Assembly: GCA_964016885.1 (NCBI GenBank)
Contig: OZ024740.1
Span: forward strand, 92,938,001-93,002,000
DNA length: 64,000 bases
Direction: 5' to 3'
Source: Eledone cirrhosa
Lineage: Eukaryota
Below the pieces are notes generated by a model. That model was not told the origin of the DNA, did no database searches, and worked only from the letters and a program-made list of their open reading frames with translations. Made by a program: the position numbers and the translations under genes. Positions 18,327 to 64,000 of this stretch are shown one piece after another. Each line of letters begins with the position of its first letter. The first letter of the stretch is position 1.

Positions 18327-18359
18327 GTTGAAATGGAGTGGAAAAGATGGGAAATACCA

Positions 18360-25605: not shown

Positions 25606-25651
25606 TGCTCTGATGAGTCCCACTTATAATGCGGATGAAACAATGTTAGCA
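25606..25651 (+). ncRNA. Minimal type I hammerhead ribozyme in the inverted pLTR
   Basis: tgct CTGATGA gtcc-cacttataatgc-ggat GAAAC aat GTT agca. Confidence 0.75.
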
Positions 25652-25691
25652 AGTAAAGATATGCATATGCTATAGGCGTTCTTTGTTATTG

Positions 25692-25740
<49 letters not shown>

Positions 25741-25746
<6 letters not shown>

Positions 25747-38483: not shown

Positions 38484-40658
38484 AACGAAGGAAACGGGGT
38501 AAGGAACCAGATGGACCATAACGCACCAAAGTACTCAATACTTAGGGTAGTTGAGTGGGTAATAAGAACAAGTAGAACCCCGAATACTGAGCTCAAACCT
38601 TTTCGGCGGCTAATTCTGGACTAAATGAACATTTTTATTCTGGTAAATGAATAGCCGATACTCTCAGGGGGTAATATTCCATATATGGTAAATGTGATTG
38701 TCACAAGGATTGGTCAAAAGTTTGTTGTTGAGACACACAATTATATCATGCCATTTTGTGGAAGGAAGGGGTAGCTGAACTTGCCAGTAGAAGAAAGAGG
38801 GAGAGGGAGTGTAGGTAACCCAGTCGCGCGTTGAAAGTGACGACTACAGCAAAATCCTAAGGATAATAGGTGTAGAGGGGGAGGGGAGGGGGGAAGTCGA
38901 AACAATAAGTAGATCTATATGGAGTAAATCTATATAGAAAAATACGCATTTAAAAATATCAAAAAACAATTTCTGGTTACTATTCCCCTACCACAATCAT
39001 CAAATGTCTCACTGGTACTGCTAAATAATAGAAAAGTTTAATAGGTGGGGCGGGATACTAAATACGAGATTGTAGTGAAAGCATTTTATGAGTTAGTAGT
39101 ACTCGGCCTAATCTATCTTACAATGACAGGTCAACAAGTAGGGGGGCAAAATACTGAAAAAAAAAAACCTAATACGAAATAATAATTCAGAGTAGCGAAA
39201 TTAATACGAAATATTAATTCAGAATCCTGAAAATGAATACTAATATGATATATAAGAGTACCGCTACAATACAGAAATTCTACTGCAAACTACATAAATG
39301 CTCGTATGATATATAAGAAAAAATGAATACGAAAAATTAATTCAGAATCTCTCCCCCCCCAAAAAATAAAATACTGATATACGAGAAACTAAAGCAGAGA
39401 TATCACTAAGAAATCTAGAAATCACGGAAATGGGGCAGCAATCAGATAAGAAAGCAAGTATCTGGGGTCTAACACATCTGCTATAAAAACCGGAGTCGGC
39501 CAATTCTATCATAGAATGGGGGGGGGGGGGGTACTGAGGCTACGTAGGGCCGAAGGACTGCTCGTGGTGGGCGAGAATGTGAAAAGAACGACGACAAAGA
39601 AGGAGAACTGGGGTGGAAGGACTAGGAAGAGATGGGGGAAGGAGGAAATATAGAGGAGACGATCAAAAATATATAAGAAAATATTACGTCTTCCTTTGTA
39701 AACAGTGTTTACCCATTACAAAGTCGGCAAGTGGAGTGTTACAGCCCTTGTCTACCCCCCCCCCCCTCCCCCCGGGTCATTATGGGGTTTGAGGGCGAGG
39801 TAAGTCCTACGCAATATGTGTTTGAATGCAGTTACCAGTTCGTATTACTTGTTTAAGAGTTGGTCCGTCGAAAACAGATTCTGAATTACTTTTTCGTATT
39901 AATTTTTTCTTATATATCATACGAGCATTTATATAGTTTGCATTAGAATTTATGTATTGTAGCGGTACTCTTATATATCGTATTATTATTCATTTTCGGG
40001 ATTCTGAATTAATATTTCGTATTAGTTCCGGGACTCTGAATTATTATTTCGTATTAGGTTTAGTTTTTTTTAGTATTTTGGCCCCCTACTTGTTGACCTG
40101 TCATTGTAAGATAGATTAGGCCGAGTACTACTAACTCATAAAATTCTTTCACTACAATCTATCTCGTATTTAGTATCCCGCCCCACCTATTAAACGTTTC
40201 TATAGTTTAGCAGTACCTATGAGAGATTTGATGATTGTGGTAGGGGAATAGTAACAGAAATTGTGTTTTTTTTATATTTTTAACATTTTTATATATCTAT
40301 ATAGATTTACTCCATATAGATCTACTTATTCTTTCGACTCCCCCCTCCCCCTGTTGAACTCTTATCCTTAGGATTCTGCTGTAGTCGTCATTTTCGACGC
40401 ACGACAGGGTTTCCTCCACTCCCTCTACCTCTTTCTTCTACTGGCAAGTTCAGCTACCCCTTCCTTCCACAAAATGCCATGATAAAATGATGTGTCTCAA
40501 CAACAAACTTTTGACCAATGCTTGTGACAATCACTTTTACCATATATCGAATATTACCCCCTGAGAAACTCAACTATTCATTTACCAGGATAAAAATGTT
40601 CATTTAGTCCAGAATTAGCCGTCGAAACGGCTTGAGCTCAGCCGTCGGGGTCCTACTC

Positions 40659-40660
<2 letters not shown>
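38484..40660 (-). mobile_element. Non-coding fold-back insertion with ~780-bp arms
   Basis: Diverged inverted arms ~38570-39345 and ~39878-40660, with a unique tail at 38484-38570 next to (AT)n. Both arms have HHR-like motifs. Confidence 0.8.
40556..40651 (+). ncRNA. Hammerhead-like motif with a shortened core (CUGAGA); inverted copy at 38577-38672
   Basis: acccc CTGAGA ... tagccgtc GAAAC ggcttgagctcagcc GTC ggggt. Stem I is acccc/ggggt and stem III is a near-perfect palindrome. Stem II cggcta/tagccg is retained in the other arm. Confidence 0.5.
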
Positions 40661-41642
<982 letters not shown>

Positions 41643-41644
41643 CC

Positions 41645-42890
41645 AGCGCTCTGGTTAGATACCATTAACAACAAAAAACAAATCCTCCATTCCCATTATG
41701 CCAAACCCATGACTTCCAAACATCTGATCCACCGAAACTCGGCCGTTTCGGACCATACCAAAATCAACATACTGATTGCGGATTTGGTACGGGTGATGAG
41801 AAATGTGTCCCGCATGTGCAACCCCGAAGAACTAGAGAGACACATACAACACTTCATCAACCGTATGCAGTTCTCTGGCTACAATCAGAGAGATAAAATC
41901 AGAGTGTATAGAGGAGCCAGAACCAAATGGGAAAAAATGGTAAATAATGACATAAATGGGACCTGCCCCTTGTATAGGAGCAAATTTTGGAATAGAATAG
42001 AAAGAACTAGAAACAAGGCTAATAGAATAAACTCATGGTATGATAGCAATAAATACTAGAGTGTAATGTTCATCGATACAACCCCTAGAGGTGAATTAGC
42101 TTACAAATTTAGAAGGTCCCTAAATAAACATAAACTCACTATTAAGATAGTAGAAAGACCAGGTACCTCCGTAAAAACACTTATTAGCAAGACATACTCT
42201 TTTCAAAGACCCTCATGTATAGATAAGAAATGTATAACCTGTAAAATAAGCCCCCATATTAACTGTAAAACTAGAAATGTAGTGTATAGCATAAGATGTA
42301 CTGAAGGACAATGTAGAGACAAACATATAGTATACATAGGTGAGACAGCTCGTATTGTAGGGGAACGGATAAATGAACACTGGCGAGACCTTCAAGATAG
42401 TAAATAATCATCTGTACTCTACCAACATGCTAAAATAGAACACAAGGGTAAATTAGAGAACATAGAAATAAAAATAGAATCTACACACAGAAAAGACGCA
42501 ACGTTTAGACAAATTACAGAGGCAATAAACATAAAAGAATTACAACCAAAATTAAATAGAAAATATGAGTGGAACAGCAACATCACAACTTACAATTAAG
42601 GACAAAATGAAAACACACACACACATAGAAAAAACAACCAACCAGTAACATGTAAATAAACAAATAAATAAATGAACATAAACACACACAGACACCCGGA
42701 TGTGGCGCATGCGCAGACTAAGCACACAACACACACACAGAAACAAAATGGCGTAGGACAGAACAAAAGAGAGGCACAGAAACAAAGAAAGGAACCCCCA
42801 GTCACTGAAGAGGTCACAGAGTGTGTGACGAAAGAACTATGACTATATATAAACAACTCTCTGGTTGTGGAACGAACCAACCAACCAGAA
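41645..42890 (+). mobile_element. 5'-truncated Penelope-like element (RT thumb, GIY-YIG, 3' UTR)
   Basis: HYAKPMTSKHLIHRNSA...LVRVMRNVS...RMQFSGY...PLYRSK, then IVERPG...CIDKKCITC...CKTRNVVYSIRC...YIGETAR...RINEH, with in-frame stops. There is an HHR in the 3' UTR. Confidence 0.85.
42800..42844 (+). ncRNA. Minimal type I hammerhead ribozyme in the PLE 3' UTR
   Basis: agtca CTGAAGA g gtcaca-gagtg-tgtgac GAAA gaac TA tgact. Stem I is 5 bp, stem II is 6 bp, and the triplet is CUA. Confidence 0.72.
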
Positions 42891-43054
42891 ATTTATAAAT
42901 TTATAAATTTATTATAAATTTATTATAATAAATTGAAGTGAAAGCACCTGGTGCGTGTGTTTCTTATTGGAAACATGACCCTCCCAAAGTATAACAATAT
43001 CGGTTTCAACACACGATTTCAGATAAAGAATCTTGCTAAACAAATTCAAAAACG

Positions 43055-43169
<115 letters not shown>

Positions 43170-43514
43170 CATATATATATATGTATATATATATATATAC
43201 ATAGTATATTTGGCGGCAATAAAGCGTATGTACATATATATTTGTATATATATATTAAGAGCCTGGGGACATATGTCCCAAGGCTCTAAAACCATTAACA
43301 CCATAAACATGAGGTCATAGACATTCAATAGCTATCATCGAAATATATATAACAGTAAATAATGGATTATGATCATGCAATTGACTTATGTTTCGTCACT
43401 ATTACAACTCCGGAATGTATATCTTCGTTGAGTGCTCCCTATCCGCATATTGAAGTACTCAATACTTAGGGTAGTAGAATGGGTAATAGGAACAAGTAGG
43501 ACCCCGACCTACAT

Positions 43515-43567
43515 ACATACATGTATACATACGTACAGTAGTGTGTAGATATATATATACATGCACA

Positions 43568-43608
<41 letters not shown>

Positions 43609-43885
43609 GCATGGATTCACCGAACATTTATTATAATGCTCGGTATACGGTATACGGTGCTGACGATAGCTAATAAGCTTGAAACTAGTACATCGTTCTT
43701 TTGTCAGTGTTGAACACAAGGGCAACGATGGTTTCTAAACACTGGACGGCTTAAATCGTGATGTTTGTTTACAAAGACACCGAGCATTATAATGAATATT
43801 AGGTGAATCCATACGTACATATATATCTATGTGTGTGCATTTATGTATATATATACATACTACTGTACGTCTGTATACATATATG
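43515..43885. repeat. Diverged inverted repeat with ~120-bp arms
   Basis: atgtacgcatggattcacc...ttataatgctcggt pairs with accgagcattataa...ggtgaatccatacgtacat. Confidence 0.8.
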
Positions 43886-43989
43886 CATGTACGTATACAT
43901 ACTTATATTTAAGTAACAGCCGTACTAAGAGTGTGAAATGAAATTTCGTTTCAGTTTCCGTTTATATATATATATATATATATACAGTA

Positions 43990-44044: not shown

Positions 44045-44084
<40 letters not shown>

Positions 44085-45344
44085 ATAAATAAAATAAAGA
44101 GGGGGGAGGAGAAGAAAATAAAAGACATCAAAAGAAAAAGGAGAGAGAAAAAAGGAAGAAAACGAAAATGAATAGAAAAGGAATGAAGGAGAAGGGTGGG
44201 ATATAGGTATTGGTTTTTGTGGGTAATTAAAGAGGTTGTATACAATAAGAGGGTAGAAAGTCTAAGTATATGCATTTTGTCAGGTGGTAGCAAGAGGTTA
44301 AGGGTTAGATTTGGACTTGTAGTGCATATCGGAGTGGTATGAGAAGCTGTCGATTATGTGACTTTGATCTGTTCCACATTTTCAGTTCGAAGAATGAGTT
44401 ACTCAAAAATACAATCGAAAGATCCATTTATTGTAACCATAGCCTCAAAGAAAATGTTCGCACTACAAGTGAAAATCGAACCCTTAACCTCTTACTACCA
44501 CCTGACAAACTGCATATACTTAGACTTTCTACCCTCTTATTGAATACAACCCCTTTAATTACAAACAAAAAACAATACCTATATCCCTCCAATCTCCTTC
44601 ATTCCTTTTCTATTTCTTTTCGTTTTCTTCCTTTCTTCTCTCTCCTTTTTTTGTCTTTTATTTTCTTCTTTCTCTCCTCTTCTCTCTTTATTTATTTTTG
44701 TTTTTTTAAATATATATATATTTATTTATCTATCAATCTCTCCCCTCCCCTTCACGCTCTCTCCGTCTCTCTCTCTCTCTCTCTCCATCCCTCCCAATAT
44801 AAACAATTTAATTCCCTTTAACTCACTACACACTAAATCGACGACATCATGTCTACATATATCAAAACTGATCAAAGATTCCTTCCACCTCTACCCCTCC
44901 CCATCGCAGTTTGTCACCCTACTGCCTATTTCTTCTCCCCATCTCTCTATCTATAATATTCCCTTTGTCCCTCCATTTTCTAATTCCTCTGCCTCTCTCT
45001 CGCTATACTAGCAAATACAATTCCAAAAAATGTTTTATATTAAGAACGTGTTAAGAGTAACTTATTCACTATTTTAAAAACTGGACGTGTACAACAATTA
45101 TTATTGAGTGGCTGCTATTTGCAGTATAGCAATATAAGGTTGCACTTACCAATGAAACGGTCGAAAATACCTGGATAAAATCCTTCTATTTTTTAATGCT
45201 TACCTGTGTTTTCTCTTTTATCCTTTACACTCGAAGATTGAACGTGACTCCTACAAACTTGTGAAGTTAGCCCTAACAGTACATTGACACCGTCCATCAA
45301 ACTTAACCACGAGCTGGATTTCAGTAAGCAATTTTCTGCTTCCC

Positions 45345-45348: not shown

Positions 45349-45385
<37 letters not shown>

Positions 45386-45671
45386 AAATAACGAAACGAA
45401 ATTAAATTTCGTTTCGTTTATAACTCACTTTTGTATGACTGACGCTTAAACAATTAAGTTAAAAATGTACATCCACATATGTATACTGAAATACTAGTAT
45501 GCATATGAATACACACACGTGTACATATGTAGATGTACCGAGTTTTCACTGGTCACTTTACTGTGAGTGTCCAGCTATTCTGTATGTAAACACACAGACA
45601 AACCGGTTTTTAGAGTCATAATGGTTTTTGAGGAAACACCTTTCCTCTATTCTCCAGAAAGCCAGACAAGG

Positions 45672-45716
45672 AATATTGGACTAGTTTCGATGTTGTTACA
45701 TCTCATCAGCAATATT
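45672..45716 (-). ncRNA. Canonical minimal type I hammerhead ribozyme
   Basis: Minus strand: aatattg CTGATGA gatgt-aaca-acatc GAAAC ta GTC caatatt. Stem I is 7 bp, stem II is 5 bp, stem III is the palindrome ACTAGT, and the triplet is GUC. Confidence 0.9.
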
Positions 45717-46136
45717 TACCTATCTTCCGGCCTCTCTAGAGAATCGTGAAAGCACATATCGTTATATGCTTTTTCTATGAAAATTAGTAGTGGGCAGACC
45801 AACTTGCATAGAGTGTGAGTACGTACCGGTTCAACGGAGACGATAAAAACAAATAACGAAACGAAATTAAATTTCGTTTCGTTTGTAACTCACTTTTGTA
45901 TGACTGACGCTTAAACAATTAAGTTAAAAATGTGCATCCACATATGTATACTGAAATACTAGTATGCATATGAATACACATACGTGTACATATGTAGATG
46001 TACCGAGTTTTCACTGGTCACTTTACTGTGAGTGTCCAGCTATTCTGTATGTAAACACACAGACAAACCGGTTTTTAGAGTCATACTGGTTTTTGAGGAA
46101 ACACCTTTCCTCTATTCCCCAGAAAGCCAGACAAGG

Positions 46137-46177
46137 AATATTGGACTAGTTTCGATGTTGTTACATCTCATCAGCAA
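46137..46177 (-). ncRNA. Hammerhead copy with stem I truncated by the inversion junction
   Basis: Same core as 45672-45716, but only ttg of the 5' strand of stem I remains. Confidence 0.75.
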
Positions 46178-46553
46178 AAACCAGTATGACTCTAAAAACC
46201 GGTTTGTCTGTGTGTTTACATACAGAATAGCTGGACACTCACAGTAAAGTGACCAGTGAAAACTCGGTACATCTACATATGTACACGTGTGTGTATTCAT
46301 ATGCATACTAGTATTTCAGTATACACATGTGGATGTACATTTTTAACTTAATTGTTTAAGCGTCAGTCATACAAAAGTGAGTTACAAACGAAACAAAATT
46401 TAATTTCGTTTCGTTATTTGTTTTTATCGTCTCCGTTGAACCGGTACGTACTCACGCTCTATGCAAGTTGGTCTGCCCACTACTAATTTTCATAGAAAAA
46501 GCATATAACGATATGTGCTTTCACGATTCTCTAGAGAGGCCGGAAGATAGGTA

Positions 46554-46598
46554 AATATTGCTGATGAGATGTAACAACATCGAAACTAGTCTAATATT
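46554..46598 (+). ncRNA. Canonical minimal type I hammerhead ribozyme
   Basis: aatattg CTGATGA gatgtaacaacatc GAAAC ta GTC taatatt, with a G-U pair at the base of stem I. Confidence 0.88.
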
Positions 46599-47019
46599 CC
46601 TTGTCTGGCTTTCTGGAAAAATAGGGGAAAGATGTTTCCTCAAAAACCAGTATGACTCTAAAAACCGGTTTGTCTGTGTGTTTACATACAGAATAGCTGG
46701 ACACTCACAGTAAAGTGACCAGTGAAAACTCGGTACATCTACATATGTACACGTGTGTGTATTCATATGCATACTAGTATTTCAGTATACATATGTGGAT
46801 GTACATTTTTAACTTAATTGTTTAAGCGTCAGTCATACAAAAGTGAGTTACAAACGAAACGAAATTTAATTTCGTTTCGTTATTTGTTTTTATCGTCTCC
46901 GTTGAACCGGTACGTACTCACGCTCTATGCAAGTTGGTCTGCCCACTACTAATTTTCATAGGAAAAGCATATAACGATATGTGCTTTCACGATTCTCTAG
47001 AGAGGCCGGAAGATAGATA

Positions 47020-47064
47020 AATATTGCTGATGAGATGTAACAACATCGAAACAAGTCCAATATT
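47020..47064 (+). ncRNA. Minimal type I hammerhead ribozyme (loop 3 variant)
   Basis: aatattg CTGATGA gatgtaacaacatc GAAAC aa GTC caatatt. Confidence 0.85.
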
Positions 47065-47281
47065 CCTTGTCTGGCTTTCTGGAGAATAGAGGAAAGGTGT
47101 TTCCTCAAAAACCAGTATGACTCTAAAAACCGGTTTGTCTGTGTGTTTACATACAGAATAGCTGGACACTCACAGTAAAGTGAACAGTGAAAACTCGGTA
47201 CATCTACATATGTACACGTGTGTGTATTCATATGCATACTAGTATTTCAGTATACATATGTGGATGTACATTTTTAACTTA

Positions 47282-47353
<72 letters not shown>

Positions 47354-47586: not shown

Positions 47587-47621
<35 letters not shown>

Positions 47622-47626
<5 letters not shown>

Positions 47627-48430
47627 GTTAACATATACATAAAGTTATAGATATATACATGGTGCAACTGGTCACTTTTAAGCTCTATGAAGAATTAATA
47701 AATTAAAAATCAGAGCAATATATCATAAATCATGTCTTTAGAATCATCAGATAAAATATATAATATTTCTTCATCTAATTAGCATAATTAAGCATATAAA
47801 AAATCAATTTTGACCAAGCTATAAGAATAAAGGCTCTTATGGAGAAATCTCCGACAAATAGCCGAACGTAGCTCTTCGCGGTGGCCCCGATCGAGTATTT
47901 ATCCAACATTTCGACAGCATGTAGAAACTGACTAAATATATCATCAACCTTACTCAATTAGGTGTAAAATTAAACTTAGAAGAAATGCGTACATACCGTA
48001 ATTATATCTCTACCATGGTTTCATCCGTATTTTTAGACATCCAAATAATAGGAATGTCCTGAGTTAGGATTCATCAGGAGACAAACTCAGAATCAGACAT
48101 CTAGTTTTTCAATCCGATCCCGCCAAAAATATATTCAAAAATGGCTAAAAATCGCTATGTGGCTGTGGTGAAGCCAGAAAGAATGTGATTGATTGCTTAC
48201 GGCGGCTAGGCTTGCTGCTAGAAAGAGCAGCCACATATTGCCAAATTTAATCTCAACCTATCGGGAGATTATTAAATATAAAGGTTAACATATACATAAA
48301 GTTATAGATATATACATGTTGCAACTGGTCACTTTTAAGTTATATGAACAATTAATAAATTAAAAAATCAGAGCAATATATCATAAATCATGTCTTTAGA
48401 ATCATCAGATAAAATATATACTATTTCTTC
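47622..48430 (-). repeat. Inverted ~1.2 monomers of the 660-bp satellite at the array start
   Basis: Reverse complement of the array monomer. aaaggttaacatatacat recurs ~658 bp apart, and the block abuts (AT)n at 47590-47622. Confidence 0.92.
48007..48081 (-). ncRNA. Type I hammerhead ribozyme, best-paired copy of the satellite motif
   Basis: Minus strand: tctc CTGATGA atcc[taactcaggacattcctattatttggatgtctaaaaatac]ggat GAAAC catg GTA gaga. Confidence 0.78.
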
Positions 48431-49291
48431 TGGCGATATTTAGTATCATAAAATAAAATATATACTATTTCTTTTGGCGATATTTGGCTGCGCTTTCTTG
48501 CAGCAAGCCTACCCGCCGTAAGCAAACAATCACATTCTTTCTGGCTTGACCACAGCTACATAGAGATTCTTAGCCATTATTGAATCTATTTTTGGTGGGA
48601 TTGGATTGAAAAGCTATATGTCTGATTTTGAGTTTCTCTCCTGTTGAATCCTAACTCAGGACATTCCTATTATTTGGATGTCTAAAAATAAGGAAGAAAC
48701 CATGGTAGAGATATAATTACGATATGTACCCATTTCTTCTAAGTTTAATTTTACACCTAATTATGTATGGTTGATGATATATTTAGTCAGTTTCTACATG
48801 CTGTCAAAATGTTGGATAAATACTCGATCGGGGCCACCGCGAAGAGGCTACGTTCGGCTATTTGCCGGAAACTTCTCCATAAGAGCCTTTCTTCTTAAAG
48901 CTTGGTCTAATTGATATTTTATATGGTTAATTATGCTAATTAGAAGAAAAAATAGTATATATTTTATCTGGTGATTCTAAAGACATGATTTATGATATAT
49001 TGCTCTTATTTTTAATTTATTAATTCTTCATAGAGCTTAAAAGTGACCAGTTGCAACATGTATATATCTATAACTTTATGTATATGTTAACCTCTATATT
49101 TAATAATCTCCCGATAGGTTGAGATTAAATTTGGCGATATTTGGCTGCGCTTTGTAGCAGCAAGCCTACCCGCCGTATGCAACCAAACACATTATTTCTG
49201 GCTTGACCACAGCCACATAGCGATTCTTAGCCATTATTGAATGTATTTTTGGCGGGATCGGATTGAAAAGCTAGATGTCTGATTTTGAGTT

Positions 49292-49370
49292 TGTCTCCTG
49301 ATGAATCCTAACTCAGGACATTCCTATTATTTGGATGTCTAAAAATAAGGAAGAAACCATGGTAGAGATA
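49292..49370 (+). ncRNA. Representative satellite hammerhead motif
   Basis: tgtctc CTGATGA a tcct[...gacattc-ctattattt-ggatgtc...]agga a GAAAC catg GTA gagata. Stem III is the palindrome ACCATGGT. Confidence 0.7.
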
Positions 49371-52300
49371 TAATTACGGTATGTAACATTTATTCTAAGT
49401 TTAATTTTACACGTAATTGTGTATGGCTGATGATATATTTAGTCAGTTTCTACATGCTGTCGAAATGTTGGATAAATACTCGATCGGGGCCACCGCGAAG
49501 GGGCTACGTTCGGCTATTTGTCGGAGATTTCTCCATAAGAGCCTTTCTTCTTATAGTTTGGTCTAAGTGATTTTTTATATGGTTAGTTATGCTAATTAGC
49601 AGAAAAAATAGTATATATTTTATCTGATGATTCTAAAGACATGATTTATGATATATTGCTCTGATTTTTAATTTATTAATTCTTCATAGAGCTTAAAAGT
49701 GTCCAGTTGCACCATGTATATATCTATAACTTTATGTATATGTTAACCTCTATATTTAATGATCTCCCGATAGGTTGAGATTAAATTTGGCGATATTTGG
49801 CTGCGCTTTCTAGCAGCAAGCCTACCCGCTGTAAGCAACCAATCACATTCTTTCTGGCTTGACCACAGCCACATAGCGATTCTTAGCCATTTTTGAATCT
49901 ATTTTTGGCGGGATCGGATTGAAAAACTAGATGTCTGATTTTGAGTTTGTCTCCTGATGAATAGTAACTCAGGACATTCCTAATTATTTGGATGTCTAAA
50001 AATAAGGAAGAAACCATGGTAGAGATATAATTACGGTATGTACGCATTTCTTCTAAGTTTAATTTTACACCTAATTGTGTATGGCTGATGATATATTTAG
50101 TCAGTTTCTACATGCTGTCGAAATGTTGGATAAATACTCGATCGGGGCCACCGCGAAGGGGCTACGTTCGGCTATTTGTCGGAGATTTCTCCATAAGAGC
50201 CTTTCTTCTTATAGCTTGGTCTAAGTGATTTTTTATATGGTTAATTATGATAATTAGCAGAAAAAATAGTATATATTTTATCTGATGATTCTAAAGACAT
50301 GATTTATGATATATTGCTCTGATTTTTAATTTATTAATTCTTCATAGAGCTTAAAAGTGACCAGTTGCAACATGTATATATCTATAACTTTATGTATATG
50401 TTAACCTCTATATTTAATAATCTCCTGATAGGTTGAGATTAAATTTGGCGATATTTGGCTGCGTTTTGTAGCAGCAAGCCTACCCGACGTAAGCAACCAA
50501 TCAAATTATTTCTGGCTTGACCACAGCCACATAGCGATTCTTAGCCATTTTTTAATCTATTTTTGGCCGGATCGTTTTGAAAAGCTAGACGTCTGATTTT
50601 GAGTTTGTCTCCTGATGAATCCTAACTCAGGACATTCCTATTATTTGGATGTCTAAAAATAAGGAAGAAACCATGGTAGAGATATAATTACGATATGTAC
50701 GCTTTTCTTCTAAGTTTAATTTTACACCTAATTGTGTATGGTTAATGATATATTTAGTCAGTTTCTACATGCTGTCAAAATGTTGGATAAATACTCGTTC
50801 GGGGCCACCGCGAAGAGGCTACGTTCGGCTATTTGTCGGAAATTTCTCCATAAGTGCCTTTCTTCTTATAGCTTGGTCTAAGTGATTTTGTATATGGTTA
50901 CTTATGCTAATTAGAAGAAGAAATAGTATATATTTTATCTGATGATTCTAAAGACATGATTTATGATATATTGCTCTGATTTTTTATTTATTAATTCTTC
51001 ATAGAGCTTAAAAGTGACCAGTTGCACCATGTATATATCTATAACTTTATCTATATGTTAACCTCTATATTTAATAATCTCCCGATAGGTTGAGATAATA
51101 TTTAGGCGATATTTGGCTGCGTTATGTAGCAGCACGCCTACCCGACGTATGCAATCAAACACATTATCTCTGGCTTGACCACAGCCACATAGCGATTCTT
51201 AGCCATTTTTGAATCTGTTTTTGGCGGGATCGGATCTAAAAACTAGATGTCTGACTTTGAGTTTTTCTCCTGATGAATAGTAACTCAGGACATTCCTATT
51301 ATTTGGATATCTAAAAATAAAGAAGAAAACTTGGTAGAGATATAATTACGGTATGTACGCATTTCTTCTAAGTTTAATTTTACACGTAATTGTGTATGGC
51401 TGATGATATATTTAGTCAGTTTCTACATGCTGTCGAAATGTTGGATAAATACTCGTTCGGGGCCACCGTGAAGAGGCAACGTTCGGCTATTTGTCGGAGA
51501 TTTCTCCATAAGTGCCTTTCTTATAGCTTGGTCTAATTGATATTTTATATGGTTAATTATGCTAATTAGAAGAAGAAATAGTATATATTTTATCTGATGA
51601 TTCTAAAGACATGATTTATGATATATTGCTCTGATTTTTTTTTTTTTTTATTTATTAATTCTTCATATAGCCTAAAAGTGACCAGTTGCAACATGTATAT
51701 ATCTATAACTTTATATATATGTTAACCTTTATATTTAATAATCTCCCGATTGGTTGAGATAAAGTTTGGCCATATTTGGCTGCGCATTCTAGCACCAAAC
51801 CTACCCGCCGTAAGCAACCAATCACATTCTTTCTGGCTTGACCACAGCCACATAGCGATTCTTAGCCAATTTTGAATCTATTTTTGGCGGGATCGGATTG
51901 AAAAGCTAGATGTCTGATTTTGAGTTTGTCTCCTGATGAATCCTAACTCCGGACATTCCTATTATTTGGATGTCTAAAAATAAGGAAGAAACCATAGTAG
52001 ATATAAAATTACGGTACGTACGCATTTCTTCTAAGTTTAATTTTACAGCTAATTTTGTATGGTTGATGATATATTTAATCAGTTTCTACATGCTGTCGAA
52101 ATATTGGATGAATACTCGATCGAGGCCACCGCGAAGAGGCTACGTTCGGCTATTTGTCGGAGATTTCTCCATAAGAGCCTTTCTTCTTATAGTTTGGTCT
52201 AATTGATTTTTTATATGGTTACTTATGCAAATTAGAAGAAGAAATAGTATATATTTTATCTGATGATTCTAAAGACATGATTTATGATATATCGCTGTGA

Positions 52301-53255
52301 TTTTTTAATTTTTTAATTCTTCATAGAGCTTAAAAGTGACCAGTTGCACCATGTATATATCTGTAACTTTATGTAATGTTAACATTTATATTTGATAATC
52401 TCCCGATAGGTTGAGATTAAATTTGGCGATATTTGGCTGCGCTTTCTAGCAGCAAGCCTACCCACCGTAAGCAACCAATCACATTATTTCTGGCTTGACC
52501 ACAGCCACATAGCGATTCTTAGCCTATTTTGAATCTATTTTTGGCGGGATCGGATTGAAAAGCTAGATGTCTGATTTTGAGTTTGTCTCCTGATGAATCC
52601 TAACTCAGGACATTCCTATTATTTGGATGTCTAAAAATAAGGAAGAAACCATGGTAGAGATATAATTACGGTATGTAACATTTATTCTAAGTTTAATTTT
52701 ACACGTAATTGTGTATGGTTGATGATATATTTAGTCAGTTTCTACATGCTGTCGAAATGTTGGATGAATACTCGATCGAGGCCACCGCGAAGAGGCTACG
52801 TTCGGCTATTTGTCGGAGATTTCTCCATAAGAGCCTTTCTTCTTATAGTTTGGTCTAATTGATTTTTTATATGGTTACTTATGCAAATTAGAAGAAGAAA
52901 TAGTATATATTTTATCTGATGATTCTAAAGACATGATTTATGATATATCGCTCTGATTTTTAATTTATTAATTCTTTATAGAGCTTGAAAGTGACCAGTT
53001 GCAACATGTATATATCTATAACTTTATGTATATGTTAACCTTTATATTTAATAATCTCCCGATAGATTGAAGTTAAATTTGGCAATATTTGGCTGCGCTT
53101 TCTAGCAGCAAGCCTACCCGCCGTAAGCAACCAATCACATTATTTCTGGCTTGACCACAGCCACATAGAGATTCTTAGCCATTTTTGAATCTATTTTTGG
53201 TGGGATCGGATTGAAAAGCTAGATGTCTGATTCAGAGTTTGTCTCCTGATGAATA

Positions 53256-56200
53256 GTAACTCAGGACATTCCTGTTATTTGGATGTCTAAAAATAAGGAA
53301 GAAACCATGGTAGAGATATAATTACGGTATGTACGAATTTCTTCTAAGTTTAATTTTACACCTAATTGTGTATGGTTGATGATATATTTAATCAGTTTCT
53401 ACATGCTGTCGAAATATTGGATGAATACTCGATCGAGGCCACCGCGAAGAGGCTACGTTCGGCTATTTGTCGGAGATTTCTCCATAAGAGCCTTTCTTCT
53501 TATAGTTTGGTCTAATTGATTTTTTATATGGTTACTTATGAAAATTAGAAGAAGAAATAGTATATATTTTATCTGATGATTCTAAAGACATGATTTATGA
53601 TATATCGCTCTGATTTTTAATTTATTAATTCTTCATAGAGCTTGAAAGTGACCAGTTGCAACATGTATATATCTATAACTTTATGTATATGTTAACCTTT
53701 ATATTTAATAATCTCCCGATAGATTGAAGTTAAATTTGGTAATATTTGGCTCCGCTTTCTAGCAGCAAGCCTACCCGCCGTAAGCATCAATCACATTATT
53801 TTTGGCTTGACCACAGCCACATAGCGATTCTTAGCCTATTTTGAATCTATTTTTGGCGGGATCGGATTGAAAAGCTAGATGTCTGATTTTGAGATTGTCT
53901 CCTGATGAATCCTAACTCAGGACATTCCTATTATTTGGATGTCTAAAAATAAGGAAGAAACCATGGTAGAGATATACATACGATATGTACGCATTTCTTC
54001 TAAGTTTAATTTTAGACCTAATTGTGTATGGTTGATGATATATTTAGTCAGTTTCTACATGCTGTCGAAATGTTGGATAAATACTCGATCGGGGCCACCG
54101 TGAAGAGGCAACGTTCGGCTATTTGTCGGAGATTTCTCCATAAGGGCCTTTCTTCTGATAGCTTGGTCTAATTGATATTTTATATGGTTAATTATGCTAA
54201 TTAGAAGAAGAAATAGTATATATTTTATCTGAATTCTAAAGACATGATTTATGATATATTGCACTGATTTTTTTTTTTTTTATTTATTAATTCTTCATAT
54301 AGCCTAAAAGTGACCAGTTGCAACATGTATATATCTATAACTTTATATATATGTTAACCTTTATATTTAATAATCTCCCGATAGGTTGAGATAAAATTTG
54401 GCGATATTTGGCTGCGCATTCTAGCACCAAACCTACCCGCCGTAAGCAACCAATCACATTCTTTCTGGCTTGACCACAGCCACATAGCGATTCTTAGCCA
54501 ATTTTGAATCTATTTTTGGCGGGATCGGATTGAAAAGCTAGATGTCTGATCTTGAGTTTGTCTCCTGATGAACAGTAACTCAGGACATTCCTATTATTTG
54601 GATGTCTAAAAATAAGGAAGAAACCATGGTAGAGATATAATTACGATATGTACGCATTTCTTCTAAGTTTAATTTTAGACCTAATTGTGTATGGTTGATG
54701 ATATATTTAGTCAGTTTCTACATGCTGTCGAAATGTTGGATAAATACTCGATCGGGGCCACCGTGAAGAGGCTACGTTCGGCTATTTGTCGGAGATTTCT
54801 CCATAAGAGCCTTTCTTCTTATAGATTGGTCGAATTGATTTTTTATATGGTTAATTATGCTAATTAGAAGAAGAAATAGTATATATTTTATCTGATGATT
54901 CTCAAGATATGATTTATGATATATTGCTCTGATTTTTTTTTTAATTCATTTATTAATTCTTCATATAGCCTAAAAGTGACCAGTTGCAACATGTATATAT
55001 CTATAACTTTATGTATATGTTAACCTTTATATTTAATAATCTCCCGATAGATTGAAGTTAAATTTGGCAATATTTGGCTGCGCTTTCTAGCAGCAAGCCT
55101 ACCCGCTGTAAGCAACCAATCACATTATTTCTGGCTTGACCACAGCCACATAGAGATTCTTAGCCATTTTGGAATCTATTTTTGGTGGGATCGGATTGAA
55201 AAGCTAGATGTCTGATCTTGAGTTTGTCTCCTGATGAACAGTAACTCAGGACATTCCTGTTATTTGGATGTCTAAAAATAAGGAAGAAACCATGGTAGAG
55301 ATATAATTACGGTATGTCCGAATTTCTTCTAAGTTTAATTTTACACCTAATTGTGTATGGCTGATGATATATTTAGTCAGTTTCTACATGCTGTCGAAAT
55401 GTTGGATAAATACTCGATCGGGGCCACCGCGAAGGGGCTACGTTCGGCTATTTGTCGGAGATTTCTCCATAAGAGCCTTTCTTCTTATAGCTTGGTCTAA
55501 GTGATTTTTTATATGGTTACTTATGCTAATTAGAAGAAGAAATATTATATATTTTATCTGATGATTCTAAAGACATGATTTATGATATATTGCTCAGATT
55601 TTTTAATTTATTAATTCTTCATAGAGCTTAAAAGTGACCAGTTGCAACATGTATATATCTATAACTTTATATATATGTTAAGCTCTATATTTAATAATCT
55701 CCCGATAGTTTGAGATTACATTTGGCGATATTTGGCTGCGCTTTCTAGCAGCAAGCCTACCCGACGTAAGCAACCAATCACATTCTTTCTGGTTTGACCA
55801 CAGCGACATAGCGATTCTTAGACATTTTTGAATCTATTTTTGGCGGGATCGGATTGAAAAACTAGATGTCTGATTTTGAGTTTTTCTCCTGATGAATAGT
55901 AACTCAGGACATTCCTATTATTTGGATGTCTAAAAATAAGGAAGAAACCATGGTAGAGATATAATTACGATATGTACGCATTTCTTCTAAGTTTAATTTT
56001 ACACCTAATTGTGTATGGTTGATGATATATTTAGTCAGTTTCTACATGCTGTCGAAATGTTGGATAAATACGCGATCGGGGCCACCGCGAAGAGGCAACG
56101 TTCGGCTATTCGTCAGAAATTTCTCCATAAGAGCCTTTCTTCTTATAGCTTGGTCTAATTGGTTTTTTTATATGGTTAATTATGCTAATTAGAAAAGAAA

Positions 56201-59200
56201 TAGTATATATTTTATCTGATGGTACTAAAGACATGATTTATGATATATTGCTCTGATTTTTAATTTATTAATTCTTCATAGAGCTTAAAAGTGACCAGTT
56301 GCAACATGTATATATCTATAACTTTATATATATGTTAAGCTCTATATTTAATAATCTCCCGATAGTTTGAGATTACATTTGGCGATATTTGGTTGCGCTT
56401 TCTAGCAGCAAGCCTAGCCGCCGTAAGCAACCAATCACATTATTTCTGGCTTGACCAAAGCCACATAGCGATTCTTAGCCATTTTTGAATCTATATTTGG
56501 TGGGATCGGATTGAAAAGCTAGATGTCTGATCTTGAGTTTGTCTCCTGATGAATCCTAACTCAGGACATTCCCATTATTTGGATGTCTAAAAATAAGGAA
56601 GAAAACATGGTAGAGATATAATTACGGTATGTACGCATTTCTTCTAAGTTTAATTTTACACCTAATTGTGTATGGTTGATGATATATTTAGTCAGTTACT
56701 ACATGCTGTCGAAATGTTGGATAAATACTCGATCGGGGCCACCGCGAAGGGGCTACGTTCGGCTATTTGTCGGAGATTTCTCCATAAGAGCCTTTCTTCT
56801 TATAGCTTGGTCTAAGTGATTTTTTATATGGTTACTTATACTAATTAGAAGAAGAAATAGTATATATTTTATCTGATGATTCTAAAGACATGATTTATGA
56901 TATATTGCGCTGATTTTTTTTTTTTTTATTTATTAATTCTTCATAGAGCTTAAAAGTGACCAGTTGCAACATGTATATATCTATAACTTTATCTAAATGT
57001 TAACCTCTATATTTAATAATCTCCCGATAGGTTGAGATTAAATTTGGCAATATTTGGCTGCGCTTTCTAGCAGCAAGCCTACCCGCCGTAAGCAACCAAT
57101 CACATTATTTCTGGCTTGACCACAGCTATATAGAGATTCTTAGCCATTTTTGAATCTATTTTTGGTGGGATCGGATTGAAAAGCTAGATGTCTGATCTTG
57201 AGTTTGTCTCCTGATGAACAGTAACTCAGGACATTCCTGTTATTTGGATGTCTAAAAATAAGGAAGAAACCATGGTAGAGATATAATTACGGTATGTACG
57301 AATTTCTTCTAAGTTTAATTTTACACCTAATTGTGTATGGTTGATGATATATTTAATCAGTTTCTACATGCTGTCGAAATATTGGATGAATACTCGATCG
57401 AGGCCACCGCGAAGAGGCTACGTTCGGCTATTTGTCGGAGATTTCTCCATAAGAGCCTTTCTTCTTATAGTTTGGTCTAATTGATTTTTTATATGGTTAC
57501 TTATGAAAATTAGAAGAAGAAATAGTATATATTTTATCTGATGATTCTAAAGACATGATTTATGATATATCGCTCTGATTTTTAATTTATTAATTCTTCA
57601 TAGAGCTTGAAAGTGACCAGTTGCAACATGTATATATCTATAACTTTATGTATATGTTAACCTTTATATTTAATAATCTCCCGATAGATTGAAGTTAAAT
57701 TTGGTAATATTTGGCTCCGCTTTCTAGCAGCAAGCCTACCCGCCGTAAGCATCAATCACATTATTTCTGGCTTGACCACAGCCACATAGCGATTCTTAGC
57801 CTATTTTGAATCTATTTTTGGCGGGATCGGATTGAAAAGCTAGATGTCTGATTTTGAGATTGTCTCCTGATGAATCCTAACTCAGGACATTCCTATTATT
57901 TGGATGTCTAAAAATAAGGAAGAAACCATGGTAGAGATATACATACGATATGTACGCATTTCTTCTAAGTTTAATTTTAGACCTAATTGTGTATGGTTGA
58001 TGATATATTTAGTCAGTTTCTACATGCTGTCGAAATGTTGGATAAATACTCGATCGGGGCCACCGTGAAGAGGCAACGTTCGGCTATTTGTCGGAGATTT
58101 CTCCATAAGGGCCTTTCTTCTGATAGCTTGGTCTAATTGATATTTTATATGGTTAATTATGCTAATTAGAAGAAGAAATAGTATATATTTTATCTGAATT
58201 CTAAAGACATGATTTATGATATATTGCACTGATTTTTTTTTTTTTTATTTATTAATTCTTCATATAGCCTAAAAGTGACCAGTTGCAACATGTATATATC
58301 TATAACTTTATATATATGTTAACCTTTATATTTAATAATCTCCCGATAGGTTGAGATAAAATTTGGCGATATTTGGCTGCGCATTCTAGCACCAAACCTA
58401 CCCGCCGTAAGCAACCAATCACATTCTTTCTGGCTTGACCACAGCCACATAGCGATTCTTAGCCAATTTTGAATCTATTTTTGGCGGGATCGGATTGAAA
58501 AGCTAGATGTCTGATCTTGAGTTTGTCTCCTGATGAACAGTAACTCAGGACATTCCTATTATTTGGATGTCTAAAAATAAGGAAGAAACCATGGTAGAGA
58601 TATAATTACGATATGTACGCATTTCTTCTAAGTTTAATTTTAGACCTAATTGTGTATGGTTGATGATATATTTAGTCAGTTTCTACATGCTGTCGAAATG
58701 TTGGATAAATACTCGATCGGGGCCACCGTGAAGAGGCTACGTTCGGCTATTTGTCGGAGATTTCTCCATAAGAGCCTTTCTTCTTATAGATTGGTCGAAT
58801 TGATTTTTTATATGGTTAATTATGCTAATTAGAAGAAGAAATAGTATATATTTTATCTGATGATTCTCAAGATATGATTTATGATATATTGCTCTGATTT
58901 TTTTTTTAATTCATTTATTAATTCTTCATATAGCCTAAAAGTGACCAGTTGCAACATGTATATATCTATAACTTTATGTATATGTTAACCTTTATATTTA
59001 ATAATCTCCCGATAGATTGAAGTTAAATTTGGCAATATTTGGCTGCGCTTTCTAGCAGCAAGCCTACCCGCTGTAAGCAACCAATCACATTATTTCTGGC
59101 TTGACCACAGCCACATAGAGATTCTTAGCCATTTTGGAATCTATTTTTGGTGGGATCGGATTGAAAAGCTAGATGTCTGATCTTGAGTTTGTCTCCTGAT

Positions 59201-61305
59201 GAACAGTAACTCAGGACATTCCTGTTATTTGGATGTCTAAAAATAAGGAAGAAACCATGGTAGAGATATAATTACGGTATGTCCGAATTTCTTCTAAGTT
59301 TAATTTTACACCTAATTGTGTATGGCTGATGATATATTTAGTCAGTTTCTACATGCTGTCGAAATGTTGGATAAATACTCGATCGGGGCCACCGCGAAGG
59401 GGCTACGTTCGGCTATTTGTCGGAGATTTCTCCATAAGAGCCTTTCTTCTTATAGCTTGGTCTAAGTGATTTTTTATATGGTTACTTATGCTAATTAGAA
59501 GAAGAAATATTATATATTTTATCTGATGATTCTAAAGACATGATTTATGATATATTGCTCAGATTTTTTAATTTATTAATTCTTCATAGAGCTTAAAAGT
59601 GACCAGTTGCAACATGTATATATCTATAACTTTATATATATGTTAAGCTCTATATTTAATAATCTCCCGATAGTTTGAGATTACATTTGGCGATATTTGG
59701 CTGCGCTTTCTAGCAGCAAGCCTACCCGACGTAAGCAACCAATCACATTCTTTCTGGTTTGACCACAGCGACATAGCGATTCTTAGACATTTTTGAATCT
59801 ATTTTTGGCGGGATCGGATTGAAAAACTAGATGTCTGATTTTGAGTTTTTCTCCTGATGAATAGTAACTCAGGACATTCCTATTATTTGGATGTCTAAAA
59901 ATAAGGAAGAAACCATGGTAGAGATATAATTACGATATGTACGCATTTCTTCTAAGTTTAATTTTACACCTAATTGTGTATGGTTGATGATATATTTAGT
60001 CAGTTTCTACATGCTGTCGAAATGTTGGATAAATACGCGATCGGGGCCACCGCGAAGAGGCAACGTTCGGCTATTCGTCAGAAATTTCTCCATAAGAGCC
60101 TTTCTTCTTATAGCTTGGTCTAATTGGTTTTTTTATATGGTTAATTATGCTAATTAGAAAAGAAATAGTATATATTTTATCTGATGGTACTAAAGACATG
60201 ATTTATGATATATTGCTCTGATTTTTAATTTATTAATTCTTCATAGAGCTTAAAAGTGACCAGTTGCAACATGTATATATCTATAACTTTATATATATGT
60301 TAAGCTCTATATTTAATAATCTCCCGATAGTTTGAGATTACATTTGGCGATATTTGGTTGCGCTTTCTAGCAGCAAGCCTAGCCGCCGTAAGCAACCAAT
60401 CACATTATTTCTGGCTTGACCAAAGCCACATAGCGATTCTTAGCCATTTTTGAATCTATATTTGGTGGGATCGGATTGAAAAGCTAGATGTCTGATCTTG
60501 AGTTTGTCTCCTGATGAATCCTAACTCAGGACATTCCCATTATTTGGATGTCTAAAAATAAGGAAGAAAACATGGTAGAGATATAATTACGGTATGTACG
60601 CATTTCTTCTAAGTTTAATTTTACACCTAATTGTGTATGGTTGATGATATATTTAGTCAGTTACTACATGCTGTCGAAATGTTGGATAAATACTCGATCG
60701 GGGCCACCGCGAAGGGGCTACGTTCGGCTATTTGTCGGAGATTTCTCCATAAGAGCCTTTCTTCTTATAGCTTGGTCTAAGTGATTTTTTATATGGTTAC
60801 TTATACTAATTAGAAGAAGAAATAGTATATATTTTATCTGATGATTCTAAAGACATGATTTATGATATATTGCGCTGATTTTTTTTTTTTTTATTTATTA
60901 ATTCTTCATAGAGCTTAAAAGTGACCAGTTGCAACATGTATATATCTATAACTTTATCTAAATGTTAACCTCTATATTTAATAATCTCCCGATAGGTTGA
61001 GATTAAATTTGGCAATATTTGGCTGCGCTTTCTAGCAGCAAGCCTACCCGCCGTAAGCAACCAATCACATTATTTCTGGCTTGACCACAGCTATATAGAG
61101 ATTCTTAGCCATTTTTGAATCTATTTTTGGTGGGATCGGATTGAAAAGCTAGATGTCTGATCTTGAGTTTGTCTCCTGATGAACAGTAACTCAGGACATT
61201 CCTGTTATTTGGATGTCTAAAAATAAGGAAGAAACCATGGTAGAGATATAATTACGGTATGTACGAATTTCTTCTAAGTTTAATTTTACACCTAATTGTG
61301 TATGG
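53256..61305 (+). repeat. Higher-order repeat: a 3965-bp six-monomer unit in two apparently identical copies
   Basis: Identical spurious ORFs are offset by 3965 (54055/58020 and 54685/58650). Monomer-specific variants recur at the same offset from ~53256 to ~57340. Confidence 0.9.
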
Positions 61306-64000
61306 CTGATGATATATTTAGTCAGTTTCTACATGCTGTCGAAATGTTGGATAAATACTCGATCGGGGCCACCGCGAAGGGGCTACGTTCGGCTATTTGT
61401 CGGAGATTTCTCCATAAGAGCCTTTCTTCTTATAGCTTGGTCTAAGTGATTTTTTATATGGTTACTTATGCTAATTAGAAGAAGAAATATTATATATTTT
61501 ATCTGATGATTCTAAAGACATGATTTATGATATATTGCTCAGATTTTTTAATTTATTAATTCTTCATAGAGCTTAAAAGTGACCAGTTGCAACATGTATA
61601 TATCTATAACTTTATATATATGTTAAGCTCTATATTTAATAATCTCCCGATAGGTTGAGATCAAATTTGGCGATATTTGGCGGCGCTTTCTAGCAGCAAG
61701 CCTACCCGCCGTAAGCAACCAATCACATTCTTTCTGGCTTGACCACAGCCACATAGCGATTCTTAGCCATTTTTGAATCTATTTTTGGCGGGATCGGATT
61801 GAAAAGCTAGATATCTGATTCTGAGTTTGTCTCCTGATGAATTCTAACTCAGGACATTCCTATTATTTGAATGTCTAAAAATAAGGAAGAAACCATGGTA
61901 GAGATATAAGTACGGTATGTACGCATTTCTTCTAAGTTTAATTTTACACCTAATTGTGTATGGTTGAAGATATATTTAGTCAGTTTCTACATGCTGTCGA
62001 AATGTTGGATAAATACTCGATCGGGGCCACCGCGAAGAGGCTACGTTCGGCTATTTGTCGGAAATTTCTCCTTAAGAGCCTTTCTTCTTATAGCTTGGTC
62101 TAATTGATTTTTTATATGGTTAATTATGATAATTAGAAGAAGAAATAGTATATATTTTATCTGATGATTCTAAAGAAATGATTTATGAAATATTGCTCTG
62201 ATTTTTAATTTATTAAATCTTCATAGAGCTTAAAATTGACCAGTTGCAACATGTATATATCTATAACTTTATGTATAAGTTAACCTCTATATTTAATAAT
62301 CTCCCGATAGGTTGAGATTAAATTTGGCGATATTTGGCTGCGCTTTCTAGCAGCAAGCCTACCCGCCGTAAGCAAACAATCACATTATTTCTGGCTTGAC
62401 CACAGCAACATATTGATTCTTAGCCATTTTTGGATCTAATTTTGGCGGGATCGGATTGAAAATCTAGATGTCTGATTTTGTGTTTGTCTCCTGATGAATG
62501 CTAACTCAGGACATTCCTATTATTTGGATGTCTAAAAATAAGGAAGAAACCATGGTAGAGATATAATTACCGTATGTACGCATTTCTTCTAAGTTTAATT
62601 TTACACCTAATTGTGTATGGTTGATGATATATTTAGTCAGTTTCTACATGCTGTCGAAATGTTGGATAAATACTCGATCGGGGCCACCGCGAAGGGGTTA
62701 CGTTCGGCTATTTGTCGGAGATTTCTCCATAAGAGCCTTTCTTCTTATAGCTTGGTCTAATTGATTTTTTATATGGTTAATTATGCTAATTAGAAGAAGA
62801 AATAGTATATATTTTATCTGATGATTCTGAATACATGATTTATGATATATTGCTCTGATTTTTTAATCTTTTCATTTATTAATTCTTCATAGAGCTGAAA
62901 AGTGACCAGTTGCAACATGTATATATCTATAACTTTATCTCTGTTAACATCTATATTTAATAATCTCCCGATAGGTTGAGATCAAATTTGGCGATATTTG
63001 GCTGCGCTTTCTAGCAGCAAGCCTAGCCGCCGTAAGCAACAAATCACATTCTTTCTGGCTTGACCACAGCAACATATTGATTCTTAGCCATTTTTGAATC
63101 TAATTTTGGCGGGATCGGATTGAAAATCTAGATGTCTGATTTTGAGTTTGTCTCCTGATGAATCCTAACTCAGGACATTCCTATTATTTGGATGTCTAAA
63201 AATAAGGAAGAAACAATGGTAGAGATATAATTACGATATGTACGCATTTCTTCTAAGTTTAATTTTAGACCTAATTGTGTATGGTTGATGATATATTTAG
63301 TCAGTTTCTACATGCTGTCGAAATGTTGGATAAATACTCGATCGGGGCCACCGCGAAGGGGCAACGTTCGGCTATTTGACGGAGATTTCTCAATAAGAGC
63401 CTTTCTTCTTGTAGCTTGGTCTAAGTGATTTTGTATATGGTTACTTATGCTAATTAGAAGAAGAAATAGTATATATTTTATCTGATGGATCTAAAGACAG
63501 TATTTATGATATATTGCTCTTATTTTTAATTTAATAATTCTTCATAGAGCTTAAAAGGGACCAGTTGCAACATGTATATATCTATAACTTTATGTATATG
63601 ATAACCTCTATATTTAATAATCTCCCGATAGGTTGAGATTAAATTTGGCGATATTTGGCTGCGCTTTCTAGCAGCAAGCCTACCCGCCGTAAGCAACCAA
63701 AAACATTCTTTCTGGCTTGACCACAGCTACATAGCGATTCTTAGCCATTATTGAATCTATTTTTGGTGGGATCTGATTGAAAAGTTAGATGTCTGATTTT
63801 GAGTTTGTCTCCTGATGAATCCTAACTCAGGACATTCCTATTATTTGTATGTCTAAAAATAAGGAAGAAACCATGGTAGAGATATAATTACGGTATGTAC
63901 GCATTTCTTCTAAGTTTAATTTTAGACCTAATTGTGTATGGTTGATGATATATTTAGTCAGTTTCTACATGCTGTCGAAATGTTGGATAAATACTCGATC

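Follow-up and report, generated by a model that had tools for sequence, protein, structure and literature searches.

A retrozyme-like repeat of Eledone cirrhosa inserted as two inverted arms with the signature of Penelope-like elements

The locus and its neighborhood

In a 64,000-nucleotide stretch of Eledone cirrhosa DNA (the window), 4.1 units of a non-coding repeat lie between two (AT)n runs, 1.7 units on the minus strand (arm A) and 2.4 on the plus strand (arm B) (Table 1). The period is 465/466 nt, and the units are 98% identical to one another. The element starts at 45378/45382 in arm A and ends at 47285/47289 in arm B. Phases were numbered from the base after the predicted ribozyme cut in the natural 465-nt unit of locus L033; on this scale, site A is phase 301 (301 nt after the predicted cut) and site B lies 227 to 232 nt after the cut. 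The segment between the two sites, called the tail below, contains a 13-bp hairpin with a U-rich stretch after it and varies least of all parts of the unit. The longest stop-free frame of the unit is 57 codons in the sense and 64 in the antisense direction, its GC content is 36.6%, and a frame scan of the unit found no reading frame with the reverse transcriptase (RT) and GIY-YIG parts of an autonomous Penelope-like element. The predicted fold (−156.3 kcal/mol; z = −9.1) was equaled by 0 of 100 shuffles, and z was about −9 to −10 against shuffles for the linear and the circular form. A preliminary description, made from the letters of this DNA, had reported about four near-identical, non-coding monomers with (AT)n at both ends, and all of this was borne out.

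Table 1. Features of the two-armed locus (window coordinates)
Feature	Position	Strand	Details
Left (AT)n target run	45349..45382		Last bases overlap the element end (ATATA versus ATAAA, 4/5)
Arm A	45378..46177	−	800 nt, 1.7 units; outer end at site A; inner end at phase 432
Tail	45378..45451	−	69 to 74 nt between site B and site A; at one end only
Intact type I hammerhead	45672..45716	−	Predicted cut after GUC, between 45679 and 45678
Truncated hammerhead	46137..46177	−	3/7 stem I pairs left
Junction of arms	46175..46177		3-nt microhomology CAA, common to both arms
Arm B	46175..47289	+	~1,110 nt, 2.4 units; inner end at phase 49; outer end at site B
Hammerhead, one stem I change	46554..46598	+	C-to-T, turning G-C into G-U; predicted cut after 46591
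Hammerhead, broken stem III palindrome	47020..47064	+	ACAAGU for ACUAGU; predicted cut after 47057
Right (AT)n target run	47286..47351		

Four type I hammerhead cores of this repeat were found in the window, and only one is fully intact. It consists of stem I (AAUAUUG/CAAUAUU), CUGAUGA, stem II and its loop (GAUGU-AACA-ACAUC), GAAA, and a palindromic stem III (ACUAGU). The other minus-strand core is short of stem I pairs because the arm junction cuts that stem. The hammerhead that had been quoted for every monomer is exact in only one of the four cores. Its reported presence on both strands did not hold, since the scan found zero hammerheads on the opposite strand of the unit, and the minus-strand matches are inverted copies of the same hammerhead. 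A viroid-like ambisense circle was rejected on the same ground, as it would carry ribozymes in both polarities of the unit. Rfam gave no match in the element at the gathering score; below the cut-off, Hammerhead_HH9 scored 38.9 bits (E = 8e-8; family cut-off, 52). Rfam matches to FasX, sraA, and miRNAs were discarded: all score far under the respective cut-offs and stem from the inversion and from hairpins rich in AT.

The window is a nest of (AT)n-bounded insertions. Six further stretches lie between (AT)n runs (25734-27531, 28410-31998, 34760-36973, 38567-40661, 41069-43209, and 44079-44706); five have inverted arms, and two contain pieces of Penelope-like RT. A broken coding Penelope-like element occupies 20889-25698, with a C-terminal GIY-YIG, a Hydra-type linker, inverted ends, hammerheads at 21062 (minus) and 25610 (plus), and a tail of ~90 nt; intact relatives of 844 to 873 codons lie elsewhere. 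An intact 1,141-codon non-LTR retrotransposon frame with RVT_1 and a C-terminal nuclease-like part (6289-9714) is accompanied by a broken tandem copy of 90% identity (10850-14684), and a separate L1/Tx1-like element lies on the minus strand at ~15500-19900. On the other side, a 657-bp array runs from 47616 to 64000 and ~14 kb beyond the window (L066-L067), reaching ~46 units with higher-order repeats. It is laid out as an 816-nt arm and a 29.6-kb inverted arm, with (AT)n at both ends and the ends 102 nt apart. A canonical hammerhead was absent from this array, which is probably a ribozyme-less non-autonomous Penelope-type element turned satellite.

The window also holds a copy of a sister retrozyme family (43510-43951; others are at L046:1328-2487 and L174:8776-9451), which is 59% identical to the 465-nt unit over 442 aligned bases. 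Its units are about 420 to 540 nt, with a GUA triplet, and its 24,001 exact hammerhead matches are about eight times those of the family studied here. Stems I and II of the sister hammerhead are replaced yet still paired, and loop II and the ACUAGU palindrome are the same. Among 15 loci inspected, the sister family was two-armed, with ends homologous to sites A and B where readable. In a whole-unit covariation test, the sister family scored no better than shifted controls.

Copies, outer ends and junctions across the genome

Searching the 3.0-Gb genome with the whole unit gave 357 matches from the best 37 of 334 candidates, 150 of them among the matches listed. The first set comprised 28 loci, namely, the window copy and all 27 other loci among the matches listed, and was assembled without regard to ends. 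In 21 of the 28, one outer end was at site A and the other at site B, with both RNA 3′ ends facing outward (A+B). Four of the remainder were single-armed, ending at A or B, and three were cut by other sequence; A+A or B+B loci numbered zero among the 28. The second set, 80 stretches around the first listed site-A junctions of contig C1, was chosen on site A. Seven of these arrays ran off their stretch, leaving 73 resolvable loci, and 58 of the 73 had their other end at B (57 without one duplicate pair; six assignments rest on very short arms). The other 15 were 8 single arms and 7 cut loci, the latter counting L107, which is one distant false match. None of the 73 had its other end at A. Variation is thus confined to the inner ends, whereas the outer (priming) ends keep to two fixed sites.

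Genome-wide, the (AT)n/site-A junction had 2,020 exact matches (control, 0), so the family numbers at least 2,020 dispersed loci; the site-B junction had 1,216 matches on the forward strand (control, 28). (AT)n flanked at least one side of 27 of the 28 first-set loci, and L038 lies in non-repeat DNA. In 91 of 108 loci, (AT)n or a target duplication closes both ends, with unit sequence only inside, and the element is therefore not attached to an open reading frame of its own. In L099, L107, and L086, a short piece of another element stands immediately between an arm and the (AT)n; these are either mixed-RNA insertions or later deletions. At L063:4458-5295, two units that lack phases 332 to 445 alternate with full ones in a single arm.

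These counts bear on several earlier claims. The repeat had been called non-autonomous, multicopy, and (AT)n-targeted, and other genomic copies had been expected; the junction matches and unit-only loci agree with all of this, and also with the expectation that the monomer is not always joined to a Penelope-like reading frame as its pseudo-long terminal repeat (pLTR). The outer ends do stop at different phases, as noted, but the same two phases recur in nearly all loci, so they are not random, and the proposed sign of a circle, variable start and end phases among genomic copies, failed because the ends are fixed at A and B. What had been described as an internal inversion is indeed a pair of inverted arms; it is the normal form of insertion rather than an accident. 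The family is young, with internal divergence of 0 to 0.3% at many loci, but the window copy, at 1.4 to 1.6%, belongs among its older members.

Fourteen loci with G or C near the left junction were informative for target duplication. Nine had one, versus 2.2 in shuffled pairings (maximum, 5 in 300), although three of the nine are uninformative periodic matches. The six clean duplications measure 11 to 13 nt when up to ~4 bases shared with the element are counted in (9 to 13 nt overall); L038, in non-repeat DNA, provides an example (AACAAAGGAACTA). Together with the tail and the inverted arm, these duplications upheld the machinery class proposed in the preliminary description, Penelope-like.

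Among 73 mapped arm junctions, 61 were simple: 37 had overlaps of 0 to 5 nt, 8 had overlaps of 6 to 11 nt, and 16 had short inserts. Arm lengths were independent (A longer in 33 of 61; rho = 0.21, P = 0.10), with medians of 563 and 626 nt. Unmatched phases were joined at 60 of 70 junctions, while 10 of 70 were near-perfect matching-phase junctions in hairpins or palindromes, versus 3.3 by permutation (P = 0.0014).

One hammerhead core variant had 3,096 exact genome matches. In 23 of 84 loci, a stem II A-U pair is swapped to U-A, and the triplet is GUC or GUU. Hammerhead pairing is maintained by compensatory change, as judged from these alignments, and cleavage itself is predicted. Conservation of the hammerhead alone was not significant (6 of 32 columns variable; P = 0.11). 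Outside the ribozyme, covariation was weak (5 double changes, 36 single changes, and 34 breaks), and pairing is loosely kept. The least variable region surrounds both priming sites (15 of 93 columns versus 108 of 328; P = 0.002), a figure inflated by the choice of the second set, which required an exact match to 29 bases of this region.

Template and mode of insertion

Arms of one locus resemble each other more than arms of different loci. Ranked by closeness to arm A, the arm B of the same locus fell within the first 5% in 47 of 55 loci (the 8 that missed this rank include the window copy), and divergence is 2 to 11% between loci against mostly under 2% within them. Nine private variants were present in every unit of both arms, and 203 of 248 were confined to a single unit; at L141, two variants were on both arms yet not in all units. 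The best reading is that one RNA per insertion templated both arms. Haplotype sharing alone is no proof of a circle, because homogeneous donor arrays would give the same pattern. In addition, the long arrays L036, L073, L113, and L138 carry periodic variants, so that arm length overstates what one enzyme copied.

The cut site was crossed by 96 of 122 arms. Of 252 passages, 11 stopped within 20 nt of the cut (4.4%, versus an average of 2.1%). Inner ends just 3′ of the cut numbered 13 of 122, versus about 5 expected; this excess was first noticed in the first set and was then seen in the second set alone (8 of 92 versus 3.0; P = 0.01). An excess just 5′ of the cut was looked for in the inner ends, and none was seen. 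Ends just 3′ of the cut would be expected in excess if some RNAs are cut there in vivo. A template that is usually continuous across the cut and sometimes begins there fits a circle together with some linear monomer. The circular template of the preliminary description remains a proposal, on another basis than the variable phases it had invoked: one haplotype per locus and arms that cross the cut point to it.

Two observations came from sequencing runs. A closed loop in an assembly graph shows up as a contig of unit length plus a short overlap. Contigs of unit length plus 30 nt were found once each in X4 and X5 (495 and 496 nt) among the four examined of six runs listed, and the X4 contig has the L036 haplotype; we did not count them for a circle, since a homogeneous DNA array gives the same result and the kind of run is unrecorded. 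When X6 was compared with window positions 46008-46115, A-to-G and T-to-C made up 30 of 56 differing places, compared with 6 of 24 in X1, and some of these were absent from X1. They could be RNA editing of double-stranded arms; the kind of run is unrecorded, and the samples differ.

Intact Penelope-like frames in the genome include those of 844 to 873 codons with a Hydra-type CxCX5C-like linker, a 775-codon family, and a third family with a hammerhead; clade names follow motifs described in PMC8557442 rather than a tree. All three families have two arms in (TA)n and tails of 46 to 94 nt. The search for a partner covered these three families in 12 short and 17 long stretches, and first-look candidates genome-wide numbered 60,420, 14,050, and 16,433, many of them beyond the three families. 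Local alignment scores of the unit against the 3′ ends of the three families were within the shuffle range, with 5 of 11 automatically cut ends falling in AT runs and hence uninformative. The 775-codon family (L161-L168) is very young, with many identical copies and a tandem period of ~4.2 kb; a hammerhead scan of it found none, and its enzyme is a candidate for being active. One L086 arm leads into a fragment of RT that lies on the arm's own strand. A co-inserted chimera was not accepted there, because the fragment is decayed by frameshift while the units differ by 0.6%.

We favor, with modest confidence, the view that the element is a non-LTR retrozyme for which a borrowed Penelope-like RT/endonuclease primed from the two ends of a staggered target cut, with a single and probably circular RNA monomer as template. 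Penelope-type twin priming as such is highly probable, and, given twin priming, a circular template is likely. A tandem array would be transcribed, its hammerheads would cut the transcript, and the monomers would circularize; cutting probably occurs as dimers because stem III is a 6-nt palindrome. To judge from the target duplications, the enzyme would nick both strands of (AT)n 9 to 13 nt apart, leaving two 3′ overhangs. At the positions observed for the outer ends, one overhang would prime at site A and the other at site B, 10 to 20 nt 3′ of a hairpin, on U-rich RNA, and with 1 to 5 nt of pairing. Both cDNAs would extend toward the RNA 5′ side, mostly through the cut/ligation site and to independent lengths. 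The antisense cDNAs would then be joined, by the 0- to 5-nt microhomology and short inserts seen at the junctions or by hairpin annealing, and second strands would be completed by the host. Tandem duplication later lengthened some of the long arrays. More tentatively, and with somewhat less than even expectation, we suggest that a dimeric Penelope enzyme holds one ribozyme-made circle, on which two conserved RNA sites 70 nt apart dock, one per nicked strand, and that the two RTs chase each other around by strand displacement. If true, this single step would account for the tail, the inverted arm, and the tandem pLTRs of Penelope elements, and retrozyme circles would be a structural, not a sequence, mimic of Penelope RNA.

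The main rival to a monomer circle retains twin priming but has as its template a linear multimer, uncleaved or cleaved in part, that was transcribed from long donor arrays of homogeneous units. Homogeneous arrays of 13 to 18 units exist as possible donors, the stops in excess just 3′ of the cut suit linear RNAs whose 5′ end was made by the ribozyme, and, in vitro, unprocessed RNA was the main substrate of a Penelope-like enzyme and ribozyme mutants left insertion unchanged (PMC11167929). However, a partly cleaved multimer always begins at the cut, where only the 11 of 252 passages stop, and no donor inversion junction or flank appears in any arm among the 73 mapped junctions. The single-unit confinement of most private variants (203 of 248), a partial variant common to both arms only in L141, and the compensatory upkeep of ribozyme pairing also argue against a linear multimer, which we regard as rather unlikely. 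Quite improbable is a single target-primed arm whose inverted partner arose by fold-back self-priming at a palindrome, as proposed for rotifer Penelopes (PMC3846280). The palindromic, matching-phase junctions speak for it; the 60 of 70 junctions with unmatched phases, the fact that either arm may be the longer, and the separate fixed site, paired with the target, at which each outer end lies speak against it. Antisense cDNAs that anneal only at hairpins would also account for the palindromic subset.

That the unit is the pLTR of a coding Penelope-like element, and the loci its truncated copies, draws on the match of Xenopus retrozymes to pLTRs (bioRxiv 10.64898/2026.07.22.740005) and on the L086 arm that continues into a same-strand RT fragment. 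We consider it very improbable, given the 91 of 108 loci with unit sequence only between the target ends, arms of up to 18 units, the frameshifted state of the L086 fragment beside units that differ by 0.6%, and the dissimilarity of the unit to the three sampled coding families, although the unit may descend from a pLTR long ago. Least credible of all is a satellite or MITE-like repeat that spreads by DNA-level recombination with a passive hammerhead. Later tandem duplication, seen as periodic variants in some arrays, and the growth of the neighboring 657-bp array to about 46 units are of the kind such a repeat predicts, but the fixed yet unequal A+B ends largely refute it, and dispersed loci, target duplications, variable inner ends, one haplotype per locus, and compensatory changes in the ribozyme also count against it.

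Relation to known systems

At the sequence level, the element has every feature by which a non-LTR retrozyme and a Penelope-type insertion are recognized: one hammerhead per short, non-coding tandem unit of <50% GC, dispersed multicopy loci with target duplications of >4 bp, an inverted 5′-truncated arm with a tail at one end, and (TA)n targets. Non-LTR retrozymes were defined, their circles shown, and Penelopes proposed as movers by Cervera and de la Pena in 2020 (PMC7229834). Li et al. (bioRxiv 10.64898/2026.07.22.740005) describe co-occurrence with Penelopes and kinship to pLTRs, with 24 of 57 Xenopus retrozyme families matching a known transposable element, nearly all of them Penelope-like elements (PLEs), and cleavage in 1 of 9 dimers tested; their text leaves the mechanism open. 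The mover enzyme and the circular template of animal retrozymes are hypotheses in both papers. Like the metazoan non-LTR retrozymes described there, the Eledone repeat consists of non-coding tandem units with one type I hammerhead each, has low GC (36.6%), thousands of copies, and target duplications over 4 bp, and coexists with Penelope-like elements. Stem III is short, as in amphibian retrozyme ribozymes that cut as dimers, and the 465-nt unit is slightly above the 150 to 450 bp given in PMC7229834 and within the 51 to 972 bp given in bioRxiv 10.64898/2026.07.22.740005. Unlike part of the Xenopus retrozymes, it has no pLTR homologue in the three coding families sampled. Two-armed insertions and fixed ends are not among the features these accounts describe for metazoan non-LTR retrozymes; the word "inverted" occurs 0 times in the main text of PMC7229834 and once in bioRxiv 10.64898/2026.07.22.740005. 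A literature search, mostly without subscription journals and supplements, likewise found no description of two-armed, fixed-end retrozymes.

In L1 twin priming, both target ends prime cDNA on one RNA, at the poly(A) end and a variable internal site, and the resulting 5′ inversion is joined by microhomology. One L1 site is thus variable, whereas here both sites are internal and fixed. Inverted arms, tails of 30 to 40 bp, (TA)n targets, and duplications of 8 to 10 bp are known from Penelope-like elements (PMC8557442, PMC3846280), and the origin of the inverted arm and tail is called open in PMC8557442. The Eledone element shares with Neptune, Hydra, Naiad, and Penelope/Poseidon the inverted 5′-truncated arm, one-end tail, (TA)n targets, partial tandems, and a hammerhead upstream of the 3′ end; unlike them, it is without an RT or GIY-YIG frame, and its arms are many-unit concatemers. 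Its tail is 69 to 74 nt, versus 30 to 40 in those groups and 46 to 94 in the coding families of this genome. Chlamys elements such as MRC1 are likewise non-coding, Penelope-type, and inserted as multicopy head-to-tail arrays, but their 3′ ends are generally similar to those of an autonomous family, and canonical hammerheads are missing from most of them (PMC8557442).

The closest experimental parallel is the Poseidon PAc element of Anolis, studied in vitro by Frangieh et al. in 2024 (PMC11167929), in which two internal start sites bound the tail and both strands of an AT-rich target are cut and extended. There, start sites did not differ between the strands and uncleaved linear RNA was the main template; here, each insertion uses each site once, with slight run-off at the ribozyme cut. 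The strict one-site-per-arm rule is not among the in vitro results described in PMC11167929. What links retrozymes to the Penelope mechanism is the combination of the A+B rule, the target duplications, and a single template for each insertion. In this family, natural products that carry the Penelope signature are available by the thousand, and the RNA of 465 nt has two defined priming sites; together with the one-site-per-arm rule, this makes a small reconstitution straightforward. Set beside these systems, the element is a member of a known retrozyme class and stands out for its unusually clear mechanistic footprint.
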